64,000 nucleotides of DNA from NCBI RefSeq assembly GCF_964188315.1, contig NC_135660.1, positions 79,670,001 to 79,734,000 on the forward strand, in the 5' to 3' direction. The position numbers and the translations under genes were made by a program. The notes beneath the pieces are model-generated. The model saw only the letters and a program-made list of their open reading frames with translations, did not search any database and was not told the DNA's origin. Below are positions 30,743-36,062 of the stretch, piece by piece; within the stretch, counting starts at the first letter, position 1, and each line of letters begins with the position of its first letter. The stretch comes from Podarcis muralis (lineage: Eukaryota).

Positions 30743-31119
30743 TTAAAACTCACACACTATTAACCGTCTTTCTGTGCAGGACTTGTCATTCCACTTGCCA
30801 TCCTGAAATATTTCAATGCAGTCCTCCTTCCCGCCAGCATTGTTTGGCTCTTCGCTTGCCCAGTTGGTGTAATTGACTTCATTGCCGTCCAGGTGGGCAA
30901 ACGTGCCTTCTGACTGCAAGTCGTTCATTCCCAGATAAGCTGCCTTGTTGTGACGAGCAACTATTTGCTGGATGGCTGCGTTCTCCGCAGAATACCTCGG
31001 AGAGGCAAGCAGACCACCGGCCTGGAAGCAGGTAGCTTTGGCTGCCTCAAAGCTGCCTTGGGAGCCGTCGGTTTTGAATAGCTTCTCACCAACACTTCGG
31101 CCATTTGGGAATAAATGAG
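30743..31119 (-). CDS. Gene 3 exon: C-type lectin CRD
   Basis: Acceptor ttcctctag; the frame is open to TAA at 30743; EPN/WND and four Cys are present. Confidence 0.95.
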
Positions 31120-34100
31120 CTAGAGGAATAGAGAATCAGTTACAGCTGCGTTAAGTTTTGGCTTCGTTGAATGGTACTTGATTAGTTATTCCTCCTCCTG
31201 GGCAGTCTGGGAAGGTTGTACAAACGGAAGCTCTAGGTTGAGCTCTAGGTTGGGCAAAAGATTCTATGATCCCTGATCCTTTTAAGAGGATATAGCAGGG
31301 ACTGAACTGGAGGTCTTCTGCAATGAGAAGCAATGAGAAGGTATGGTCTGATCCCTTTACTGGAAAAGGATTAAACACATCCTTCTTCCACACCAACTTG
31401 CATCTTGCAAGTTGAAAGAATCACAGAACTTGATGGAAAATGTATTTTGAGTTTACATTTTAGCTAGCTAATGGGTGGCACTCTCTACCACTTTTGTTGA
31501 TTCATGCTGATGCTTAGTTTATTAAGATGAAGTTTGGGTAGTGTCTTTTAGTTTGAACCTTACGAGTTCACATTGATATTTAAGTAATCTTTAGTGTGGG
31601 GACTTATCAGACTGCACTGTCTCTCTGCTGGTTTGAAATGCCCTTAGGAAATGTAAACAGCTGCTAAATCTGCTGTGACTTTAACTATATAATTATGTAC
31701 AAATATGAATGGGAATCAGGTTTGTCATAAATCATACAATTAATGCTTTGGTCATATGAAGCTTAGCAGTTCTTCCCGTGTCTAATCCCCACGTCCAAAG
31801 TCAGAATCAGGTTTAACTCAAAGCTAGCAAATCAGAACTAACAACCTTATTAGCAATGGAAAGCCAACATAGTTACCATTTTAGACAGTAGGGGCCCTCC
31901 CTCAGCTGGCAGTTCAACTTTCAAATAAAATAAAGTAACACCACAGTGAAGAATTTGTTAGCAGCTGTGTGTTTGTTGTGGCGTGACAGACAGTGCATTC
32001 AACTGCCCAAACCCACCTTCAGGGCTGTTTTAGATACAGTCAGTAGCAGGGCCGGATTTAGGTAAGCTACTGAAGGTAATGGGACCTTTTATATGTTCAG
32101 CTGTCCTTTGTCAACAACAAATTGTCACTCTTTTTTTGTGTTGAATAGATGCTATATGGTAATTTATGGACCTAATAGATATCTAAAGCCATTTGTACAT
32201 AACAAAATATGTATTTTATCAAAGTTCTGTAATTGTTGAACTGAAATACAATTAAGAAGTTTATCTTACATTTTCGAAATGTACATCCAGTTTTTTCTTT
32301 TAATTTTTGGGGGGACCCCCAAGAGAGTAGGGTCCTAAGCTAGAGTTTGTTTAGCTTATAGATAAATCCGGCACTGAGTAGTATCAGCTGAGCTTCCTTC
32401 CTAACAAACTAATCTATACAGAAGGAGATTGTTTTGCCATTTTGGTTGGGGAACCTTCAGACATGCAACCCTGCCCTTGCCACTTGAAGTGGTACAGTCC
32501 TGAGAAAGCTTACAATCTGTTGATTTTATAAATTATCTCTTAGAGCTTTAACTCCAAGAGCCAGAGCAGCTGGATTTAGGCTGCATCATCATATTAAAAT
32601 CAACATGTAGGTCCCTCTGCAGGACACTTGATAGATAACTTCATGCATTTCACAGAAAATGATATCTGATATCCACATTCTCGCCAGTCCGCTCCATTTT
32701 CTCACCATTTTGGTTCCTGAGCATAGCGTTTCTCAGAGCCTCCACTTGTTCTTTCAAACGGGCCACTTCAGATTCCAGTTGCTGAAGTTCTAAATGATGT
32801 AACAATAAAGACAAAATTCTTAATATTGAGATGTAAAGCATATACTGAGAAAAGCATGACAATGAGAGGAACCACCTCTGTGATAAGCCACAAGTGCAAC
32901 GTCAAAAACCTCTGGATTCTCCGCCTCTGCTTCTCAGTTTTTGAAAAAGTACTTTAATAAACACAGCAAGTAATGCAGTTCAGAAGTCAAAGCTGCTGAT
33001 TTAAAAACAAGTCAGTGACCCTCAGTTGTCTAACAAAACTATTTTTGCCTAGATTCAGCTGGACAGGAGAGGAAATTGTTTGGTTCACATTTTCATGCAA
33101 GCCTACCTGATTAACATCTCCAAAACCCACACACTAACCAAAACTGGAATCCTATCAATCAGCTGTCCCAGAGCTGCTGATTGAGGCCACCTCCACTAAA
33201 TAATTTGTTCTCAGTAGGATTCTGGTTTCTCTTTATTCTATTTATTTAGTAAACTTTTCCAAAAACACTAATTGGAGTCAAAATTGAAGCAAAATGGGTA
33301 CAATGGGTGAGTATGATCAGCCTTAAGTCAGCTCAATAAATAGATTCCAGTTTGTTTGTTTTTGTTTGTTTGTTTTTAAAAAGGACTATGGGAATGCAGT
33401 CCCGGCTGCTTTGTGCAAATGCTGCAAATCACCACCACCACCTATTAGGAACTTGGACCCACATATCTTGTTTGAGATGTGATTGTTCTCACCCTGATTG
33501 GGGCGCAGGTAAAGGATTTTGCCAATGTGGTTTCTCTAACAGCACTCTTATGGAAACATGATACTATATCAGGCATAGGCAAACTCGACCCTCCAGATGT
33601 TTTGGGACTACAACTTCCATCATCCTTAGCGAACAGGACCAGTGGTCAAGGATGATGGGAATTGTAGTCCCAAAACATCTGGAGGGCCGAGTTTGCCTAT
33701 GCCTGTACTATATCCACCAAGTATGCTGTTATAGGAATGACATAGATGGAGGCATTTAGGAAGACTTCCTAATAGGTGTAGGATGAACTGCATCAGCAAC
33801 TGAGTACCTATAGAGAGGGGAGTCTTAAACTACTGACATTATTGTTGTATAATGAGCAAAAAAGCCAACCATTATTCCAAACTGACTGGCATAAAGCCTA
33901 TTGTGAGCATTTCTTGGTGACACTTGGGGAAATACAGTGTGGTCAAGTCTTGGAGCCCCTGACCATGGGAATGCTCCTTTTATAGGTTTACAAAATGTGT
34001 ACACTTAGAATTTTTTGAAACTGAAACAACTAGGTGACCCTGGTCTACCTAGGTCTTTGTACTGACAACCCTCTTCTTTCAGTGACGGATGCTCTCTGTG

Positions 34101-36062
34101 GCACAATGGGTCGGTGCGTCTGGCTGTTTACTGGGAAGGTTGGTGGTTTGAGCTACTCAGGGATTGCTGTGGGCAGGATCCCTGTATTGCAGGGGGTTGG
34201 ACTAGATGACCCTTGGGGTCCCTTCCATCTCTACAATTCTATTATGAGTTTATCAGATCAGGCTTTCCAGAGTCAGGTTTTTTGAAGAGTCATCAGGAAG
34301 TGGCATTTCCCCTTTTGGGTTGTTTTTGTTCTTTGGTCATTTGTTACTAGTTGGTTTAAATGTGCCCTCTTGTGGTATAATAGAGACATAACCAAAATAA
34401 ATGTGCAGTTAGTTTAGAAGTGATGGATTTTCTCATCAGTTGTCACAGGGAAACGTCGCCACGAAGTGAGATCGTTCTCTGTAATTATTTGTCAGAATAA
34501 ACGTGCTCCCTCACGGTGCAGATACAGCCACAGAAAAGGCAATGTTTGTTTGCTTTAGGTGAAATTATATCTAGATTTCAGATGGCTGTAACTTTACTAC
34601 TACCTGGTGAAGGAAAGTGAAACCATTGAGATGATGCCTTGTACTTTGCAAATACTCTTACGTGAAAGCAGGTTGCATTCAGTGGTTGTCTCTTCAGTGC
34701 CCAGAATGATTGTCCACCAGAGAAGAAAGATGGCAGATTAGCAGGTAGCTAATCTATGAATAGGCTCCTACCTCTTGCTCCATGGTCTCCCTTTGGTCCT
34801 CTTTCACCTACTAGACCCCGATCTCCTTTATCGCCTTGAGGCCCAGCTTTTCCTGGAGGTCCCTGAATTCCTTGGGGTCCTAGACATCATGGGATTAAAT
34901 GAACATCAAGAAACACCAGGAATAACAGGAAGTAAGAAATACGAATCCATGGTCAAGTTCTACAAGAACATCCGTTGCATGGACAAACATTTAGATCCTG
35001 ATCAAACCTTGAGTGGCTGGACCAATTATGGTGGTGATGTGCTCATACTTTGGCATCAAATACAGAAATACTTGTTTTGAAAAGTTCTGACTAATGGCTA
35101 ATGGCTTATTTTACACTGAGCCACAAAGCTCACCTCAGATTGCCTTATTGTAAGAATCGGCAGCCGTATCCCATCCCATCAGGGCTACCATTGATTCCCT
35201 AGATACCAAACCAAAGCCAAGAGGGGTATCCCCAAAAAGTGACAATTAGGATAGCGTCAGGGGTGGCAGAAATGACAGGGTCCGGTTTGGAGACACACAC
35301 GCAGTGGTAGCATCCCAATGCTGGTCACTTCGCTCCCTCCTCAGAATGTTTCCCAGTCGTGGTCCCTCCCCTCTTGCTCCAATTCTAAGGCGACGTGGGA
35401 GAGTACAAACGCAGGCAGGCAATGATCTGGAATTTAAAATGGCCGACTGCGCTGCAGAGCTCCACCAGGCAATGGGCCTTTTAAAGCAGTGCTGCCTAGT
35501 TGGGCAGGGCAGGGGCCAATGTCCAGATGGCCAGCAAGTTTCTGCCCTGGCGAAGCAGCCGCTGGCTGGGCTGCCACGGTCTTCAACTCTGATGGGTATC
35601 TGCCCCCATTCCCAGGGCATAGGGGCTGGTCAGTGTGTGCGGTGGGGTAAAGAGGCTGGAGTGCAAGGGGCCATAAACGTCGCCCCAGGGAAGGCAATGA
35701 GCAGCCATTGCTGACCAAGGTCCTTACTACAAAACAGTCCTCTTTTTAGGATTGAAGTTGTTGAGCATTTTTTAGGATTTTACCCTAGGAAATAAATTGC
35801 CACAGGGGCCGGATTAAACTGACCGGCGGGCCAGATTAGGCCCCCAAAACAGACTTTGGACATGCCTGCACTAAGCCCACCCCTGACAAGTCTTTGTAAC
35901 TTTACCTTGATCACCCTTCTCTCCTGCGGGACCCGGCAATCCATTGCTCCCAGGCATTCCAAGAATGAAAGGGCACGTGTTGTCCTTGCCTGCAGTGGGG
36001 ATTGTGCTTTGTGAGAATGCCACCGGCAAGATAAGGAAGCCAAAAGTCCAAAGGAATCCCAT
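30743..36062 (-). CDS. Collectin gene 3: short-collagen collectin with SP-D-like CRD and MASP-type motif, 4 coding exons, predicted 241 aa
   Basis: Exons 35906-36062 (157 nt), 34772-34879 (108 nt collagen), 32706-32789 (84 nt neck) and 30743-31119 (377 nt [30 protein letters not shown]). The sum of 726 nt is an open frame. Confidence 0.9.
32047..32376. mobile_element. hAT-like MITE
   Basis: TIR cagggccggattt/aaatccggcactg; no clear TSD. Confidence 0.7.
32706..32789 (-). CDS. Gene 3 exon: 84-nt neck
   Basis: catttag/AA..AATG/gtgaga; encodes [28 protein letters not shown]. Confidence 0.92.
33570..33705. mobile_element. Palindromic hAT MITE
   Basis: Same family as 27424; exact TSD tactatat. 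Confidence 0.92.
34772..34879 (-). CDS. Gene 3 exon: 108-nt collagen exon
   Basis: gtctag/GA..AGAG/gtagga; encodes [36 protein letters not shown]. Confidence 0.92.
35906..36062 (-). CDS. Gene 3 exon: signal peptide + single Cys + collagen start
   Basis: tttctag/[48 protein letters not shown]; donor CAAG/gtaaag. Confidence 0.85.

Follow-up and report, generated by a model that had tools for sequence, protein, structure and literature searches.

A short SP-D-like collectin gene of the lizard Podarcis muralis with a MASP-type collagen motif and a CRD sequon

Gene 3, the subject of this report, lies in a 64,000-nt stretch of contig NC_135660.1 of the lizard Podarcis muralis (the window) and belongs to a cluster of collectin genes, and several described collectins offer points of comparison. 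Surfactant protein D (SP-D) needs two N-terminal Cys to form multimers, and its trimers are weaker than the multimers (PMC5809447). MASP binding is mediated by as many as four weak contacts between CUB domains and collagen, and SP-A is described as lacking MASP binding (PMC2856262). The Asn187 glycan of SP-A matters for influenza and herpes simplex virus binding (PMC7851053), and in porcine SP-D a sialylated N-glycan on the carbohydrate-recognition domain (CRD) adds antiviral activity, influenza included (PMC6842947). Collectin-11 (CL-11, CL-K1) is described as having one N-terminal Cys, assembling into oligomers as large as tetramers of trimers and acting together with MASPs (PMC13197076). 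Lizards are absent from the treatment of tetrapod collectin evolution in PMC12077231. In the literature searched, in which subscription journals were mostly uncovered, we found no study of the reptile gene lineage described below, none on MASP motifs in the SP-D of reptiles, and no functional study of the short SP-D-like collectins of squamates.

Gene 3, intact and spliced, is very probably no mosaic but one of the short SP-D-like collectin genes of a lineage that spans the squamates, and its product is likely a secreted, Ca-dependent lectin of the mannose/glucose type that may recruit MASPs through an ancestral motif. An initial annotation of this stretch had taken it for a three-way mosaic of an MBL-type MASP site, an SP-D-type CRD and an SP-A-type sequon. 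The features named there are present: the CRD is SP-D-like, the MASP-type motif is intact, an N-Y-T sequon occupies the alignment column of the SP-A glycan, a single Cys precedes the collagen, and human SP-A does have VNYTNW (P0215). The mosaic itself is not borne out, since per-exon scores and both trees place all exons with squamate orthologues, the motif is common to most genes of the cluster and occurs in a lungfish, and the sequon and the Cys loss are small changes specific to the lineage.

Structure, splicing and orthology of gene 3

Gene 3 is a four-exon collectin gene on the minus strand (36062-30743), with a 241-aa open frame, AG/GT intron flanks and phase 1 joints. Its features are the following:

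36062-35906, minus strand: exon 1 (157 nt), with ATG, predicted signal peptide, short N-terminal segment and the 6 first Gly-X-Y triplets
35975-35973, minus strand: the only Cys before the CRD, in exon 1 (exons 2-3 without Cys)
34879-34772, minus strand: exon 2 (108 nt), with 12 Gly-X-Y triplets; Pfam Collagen, 1.4e-6
34856-34839, minus strand: MASP-type motif, within the collagen stretch 34871-34839 (motif as defined in PMC2856262)
32789-32706, minus strand: exon 3 (84 nt), a 28-aa coiled-coil neck, assigned by homology
31119-30743, minus strand: exon 4 (377 nt), C-type lectin domain with EPN and WND
30874-30866, minus strand: N-Y-T sequon, in the SP-A CRD sequon column; position 313 in human SP-D numbering (offset approximate)
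30850-30842, minus strand: EPN of the CRD
30793-30785, minus strand: WND of the CRD
30742-30000, continuing below 30000, minus strand: 3' untranslated region, from transcript contigs; AATAAA-type hexamer at ~29586

The collectin layout is thus complete, with a Cys-containing N-terminus, collagen, neck and C-type CRD in one chain. The signal peptide is predicted by homology to span ~17 aa, and the Gly-X-Y run is unbroken across the exon 1/2 join. The neck exon measures 84 nt in genes 2, 4, 5 and 6 of the cluster as well, and the SP-A neck of gene 7 measures 78 nt.

Transcript evidence comes from contigs of 4 of 24 listed runs, which carry no tissue label and whose RNA status was guessed by the tool. 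One 1166-nt contig (run X1) spans the four exons with the three introns skipped exactly and exons 1-3 free of gaps; since it covers exon 1 in spliced form, the shortness of this exon is not an assembly error. A contig of run X6 shows two of the three exon joints, and the sequon lies outside the coverage of run X9.

The best PDB scores of the gene 3 CRD were obtained with SP-D (160 bits), followed by an SP-A mutant (125), wild-type SP-A (115) and MBL (111). The solved SP-D CRD aligns to it without gaps, and Pfam Surfac_D-trimer also matches. As a control, the MBL gene of the cluster (gene 6) scored MBL highest among collectins (123 vs 113), so an SP-D-like appearance common to all reptile collectin CRDs was rejected. 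The Ca-site positions D297, E301, E321, N323, N324, E329, D330, N341 and D342 (human SP-D numbering, taken from the gap-free alignment) are all kept as acidic residues or Asn, and the Ca site 2 set for mannose-type binding (EPN, E, WND) is present. F335 and R349 are likewise kept, A325 and K343 are found at their positions, and the domain holds four Cys.

Homologue searches recovered orthologues in iguanians, geckos and the amphisbaenian Rhineura, with CRDs 73-86% identical to that of gene 3. P0003, P0004, P0006, P0007 and P0008 among them carry the automatic name 'pulmonary surfactant-associated protein D-like', and an atlas search with P0008 returned collectin clusters only. Among the nine groups compared, all four exons scored highest with the five orthologues tested; for exon 2, long SP-D came next (means 116 and 112), above MBL (105). 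The quick CRD tree contained 196 rows, 11 of 207 matches having been left out as multi-domain, and placed gene 3 within a 15-row squamate clade amid short SP-D-like proteins of squamates and turtles. In a careful CRD tree of 73 hand-picked rows, gene 3 and five orthologues grouped with support of 99/99 (98/92 under LG), and the branch of gene 3 was short (0.08). The tree of the pre-CRD part (72 rows; P0076 was dropped because no exon end was found) again united gene 3 with its orthologues (99/98), Rhineura being its sister (99/92). Gene 3 lies outside the MBL clade in both trees, and the SP-A clade excludes it with 100/100 in each.

The MASP-type motif, the sequon and the N-terminal Cys

The collagen of gene 3 contains PGKAGP, which fits the MASP-binding motif as defined in PMC2856262 and makes this a candidate site, read from sequence. 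With groups taken from the quick CRD tree, PGK[AVLMTISN]G[PASY] was present in 9 of the 11 gene 3 clade members with collagen, in 18/20 of the gene-4 clade, 4/6 of the gene-5 clade and 3/12 of the turtle short proteins. It was also counted throughout the MBL clade (17/17), in 17 of 27 reptile long SP-D proteins and in 8 of 34 amphibian, lungfish or unnamed ones, and it is rare in mammal SP-D (1/19) and SP-A (4/119). Lungfish P0120 carries it. Most genes of the cluster share the motif, including the long-collagen SP-D gene 2, whose exon 2 (47115-47231) carries PGKMGP. The simplest reading of this distribution would be an ancestral motif that was retained and then lost in mammalian SP-D. A kink-like Gly-X-Y interruption before the MASP site was absent from gene 3 and present in gene 6 and the mammal MBL rows.

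No sequon other than N-Y-T occurs in the four exons. From human P0215 and the SP-A numbering, we take the column of N-Y-T to be that of SP-A Asn187. A sequon at this column is carried by 116 of 122 SP-A rows, by none of the 14 gene 3 orthologues (1/15 for the clade) and by none of the 160 other non-SP-A CRDs. The position of its Asn varies within the gene 3 clade (G, E, R, I, V, S), and S/T at +2 is already found in 138 of the 160 non-SP-A rows, so that one codon change (1-2 nt) creates the sequon. At the DNA level, the CRD exon is 63.5% identical to that of gene 2, 63.7% to gene 5, and 48.1% and 46.9% to the SP-A genes. No conversion tract was detected: the best 10-codon window to SP-A near the sequon matched at 18/30 and synonymous sites differ, tracts below ~10 nt being undetectable. 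Organisms C and D, represented by contigs 95-96% identical, retain NYT, but five codons upstream, where gene 3 has the SP-A-like Asp, both read Asn (differences listed: 4/6 and 6/8); the SP-A-like residues therefore did not arrive together. The sequon is, judging by these comparisons, a point gain parallel to SP-A and common at least to close relatives, which may have arisen by a change at a variable position before a conserved Y-[S/T]-N-W.

All eight orthologues with an exon 1 have 3-4 N-terminal Cys in the pattern CxC-x5-6-C, of which gene 3 retains the last only, after a gap of ~4 residues, two Cys being gone. We regard the single Cys as a recent loss in the lizard lineage, probably through a short deletion plus a substitution. 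Neither the three homologue searches nor the representative search, the latter returning mostly multi-CRD proteins, contained a lacertid orthologue protein, and with exon 1 of other lacertids unseen, the loss is dated only as after the split from Rhineura. One Cys means one disulfide per chain, which limits covalent species to chain dimers, and the native size of the protein would depend on whether disulfides join separate trimers. A low oligomer state would be in tension with MASP coupling, because MASP binding occurs by up to four weak contacts.

The collectin cluster

The 1.52-Gb genome gave 17 matches to the gene 3 CRD, eight of them in one same-strand tandem array that runs from gene 1, with a divergent CRD, through gene 2 (long SP-D), genes 3-5 (short) and gene 6 (MBL clade) to genes 7-8 (SP-A). 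In genes 2, 6, 7 and 8, this lizard thus possesses SP-D, MBL and SP-A genes of its own. The other members of the array are:

61683..62003, minus strand: gene 1, CRD exon, which heads the cluster and encodes a divergent C-type lectin domain of reduced length
41029..49322, minus strand: gene 2, an SP-D with long collagen and PGKMGP; 371 aa in 7 coding exons, 2 N-terminal Cys
20137..23497, minus strand: gene 4, short paralogue; 3 N-terminal Cys, PGKAGP
6063..11915, minus strand: gene 5, a short paralogue with 2 Cys that lacks the MASP lysine motif and has WND replaced by WHD
Just outside the window: gene 6 (MBL clade), L006:4202-9552; gene 7 (SP-A1 type), L005/L004; gene 8 (second SP-A), L003:2308-2679

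Gene 1 (61683-64000) has a 13-residue gap in its CRD, where EPS and WHS replace EPN and WND; a neck-like exon lies near 63110-63190, and the edge of the window holds a signal-like stretch. A search up to 130 kb beyond the window revealed no collagen run, and an atlas search with this gene returned nothing. In the quick CRD tree its branch is long and falls among the short SP-D-like proteins. The gene may resemble the collagen-less alpha-type phospholipase A2 inhibitors of snakes. These inhibitors are trimeric and CRD-like, without the Ca residues (PMC5364564).

The CRD of gene 4 is 98% identical to a Podarcis protein, and gene 7 is identical to P0151. Gene 8 has a short collagen and EPT, and NYTNW is found in both SP-A genes. 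Gene 5 has a very short first collagen run, and its 5' half looks like the N-termini of long SP-D or of the turtle type, while the N-termini of other proteins in its CRD clade are of the CxC type. For exon exchange it is a stronger candidate than gene 3. The database models P0005, P0001 and P0002 merge neighbouring cluster genes, as in an Anolis isoform in which the 5' part of a long SP-D precedes the CRD of gene 3, and reflect either read-through splicing or an annotation artefact. Between genes 4 and 5, a stop-broken stretch (14166-14369, minus strand) matches a non-collectin stretch of the Varanus model P0002 at 47% and is probably a repeat remnant. Intron 2 of gene 3 harbours a small inverted-repeat element (33570-33705) with 58-nt arms that are 95% complementary, kin to 37061-37214; as very many contigs align there, it is a common repeat.

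Origin of gene 3 and comparison with known collectins

As a member of the squamate short SP-D-like lineage, gene 3 would encode chains that neck and collagen assemble into trimers; EPN and WND would bind terminal sugars, marking microbes, and the Lys of PGKAGP could dock the CUB domains of MASPs. That the protein binds MASP is, in our estimate, an evenly balanced proposition, and controlled complement activation would be less probable than binding.

Several results weigh against this account. Approximately unbiased (AU) tests left gene 3 with SP-A unrejected, for the CRD (p 0.147) as well as the pre-CRD part (p 0.144), a grouping in which a long stem makes for loose attachment, and they did not reject the whole clade with MBL for the pre-CRD part (p 0.127). 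The deep forks among SP-D-like CRDs are poorly supported in the quick tree (80 in the Shimodaira-Hasegawa-like approximate likelihood ratio test, SH-aLRT) and unsettled in the careful one, so that the label 'SP-D lineage' rests mainly on similarity. Moreover, Asn at the sequon position in 0/160 other CRDs, although most have S/T at +2, hints that the site is not freely drifting, the rows being non-independent.

The AU result for SP-A is among the points that favour a recent mosaic or gene conversion, combining MBL collagen, an SP-A sequon tract and an SP-D CRD: the donors lie in the same tandem array, and LDG...VNYTNW equals SP-A gene 7 at the protein level. However, there is no DNA tract, the Asp of LDG is absent from the relatives that retain the sequon, each exon is nearest to the orthologues, and the AU test rejects gene 3 alone with MBL (p 2e-6 for the pre-CRD part, p 0.027 for the CRD); we consider such an origin extremely improbable. 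An ancient chimera, in which a 5' half of MBL type, N-terminus plus collagen, was fused to a CRD of SP-D type before the squamate radiation and founded genes 3-5, would agree with the MBL-like four-exon, short-collagen layout, the motif and the unrejected grouping of the clade with MBL. Yet the best pre-CRD tree pairs MBL with two amphibian-grade proteins (97/94), outside the gene 3 clade, exon 2 scores higher to long SP-D than to MBL, the MBL interruption of Gly-X-Y is missing, and, with the motif in lungfish and long reptile SP-D, retention suffices without exchange. This older join is, in our view, quite improbable.

With the squamate SP-D-like origin retained, the motif might still be vestigial, the loss of two Cys leaving mainly single trimers unable to hold a MASP dimer and a protein that acts as a weak opsonin or drifts to a new role. 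The weakness of the MASP contacts, up to four in number (PMC2856262), and of trimeric SP-D relative to multimers (PMC5809447) is consistent with this, as are gene 5, without the motif, and gene 1, apparently without collagen; against it stand the exact motif, the intact frame, the short CRD branch, the spliced contigs and the oligomerization of CL-11 with its single N-terminal Cys. We hold a vestigial motif to be possible but somewhat doubtful. A farther-reaching proposal seems unlikely to us: reptile SP-D-type collectins, long and short, would be complement-activating and would have kept a working MASP site lost by mammalian SP-D, and in this lizard lineage the CRD glycan of SP-A would have evolved anew at the same position while the linking Cys were reduced to one, the outcome being a natural SP-D-like lectin that is coupled to MASPs and bears a sialylated decoy.

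Taken alone, gene 3 departs only modestly, by two lineage-specific changes, from a reptile family that has been annotated before. The low oligomer state that the initial annotation had derived from one Cys does not follow, given that CL-11, with the same number, reaches tetramers of trimers. Its remark that the combination is not known from mammals is weakened by CL-11, which pairs one Cys with MASPs, and by the sialylated CRD glycan of pig SP-D. Neither is a close counterpart: CL-11 is a separate lineage with a distant CRD (69 bits), and porcine SP-D has a long collagen and its glycan at site 303, ~10 residues before that of gene 3 (313, human SP-D numbering, offset approximate).

MBL shares with gene 3 the four coding exons, short collagen, PGKxGP and EPN/WND, but gene 3 lies outside the MBL clade, to which gene 6 belongs, and lacks the Gly-X-Y interruption. 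SP-A has a sequon at the same CRD column, but its neck differs in size, and CRD identity to gene 7 is 46% over 115 aa. Mammalian SP-D provides the closest solved CRD, with E321, N323, E329, F335, N341, D342 and R349 in common. Gene 3 differs from it in its collagen, which is not long but limited to 18 Gly-X-Y triplets in two exons, in having a single Cys where SP-D has two, and in A325, K343 and the MASP motif that only 1 of 19 mammal SP-D proteins carries; it is gene 2 that has the long multi-exon collagen and two N-terminal Cys of SFTPD. The commonness of the motif in reptile SP-D-type proteins and its near absence from mammalian SP-D suggest loss as the origin of the division of collectins into complement-activating and complement-silent ones. 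When MASP binding was engineered into SP-A, activation escaped control (PMC2856262), and natural SP-D-type MASP carriers would thus show what keeps activation target-dependent.

The squamate SP-D-like short collectins share the layout of gene 3, 73-86% of its CRD residues and the same MASP-type motif, and differ from it in their 3-4 N-terminal Cys and the lack of a CRD sequon. Gene 3 and its three-Cys, sequon-free orthologues therefore form a natural pair for the effects of Cys number and of a CRD glycan.

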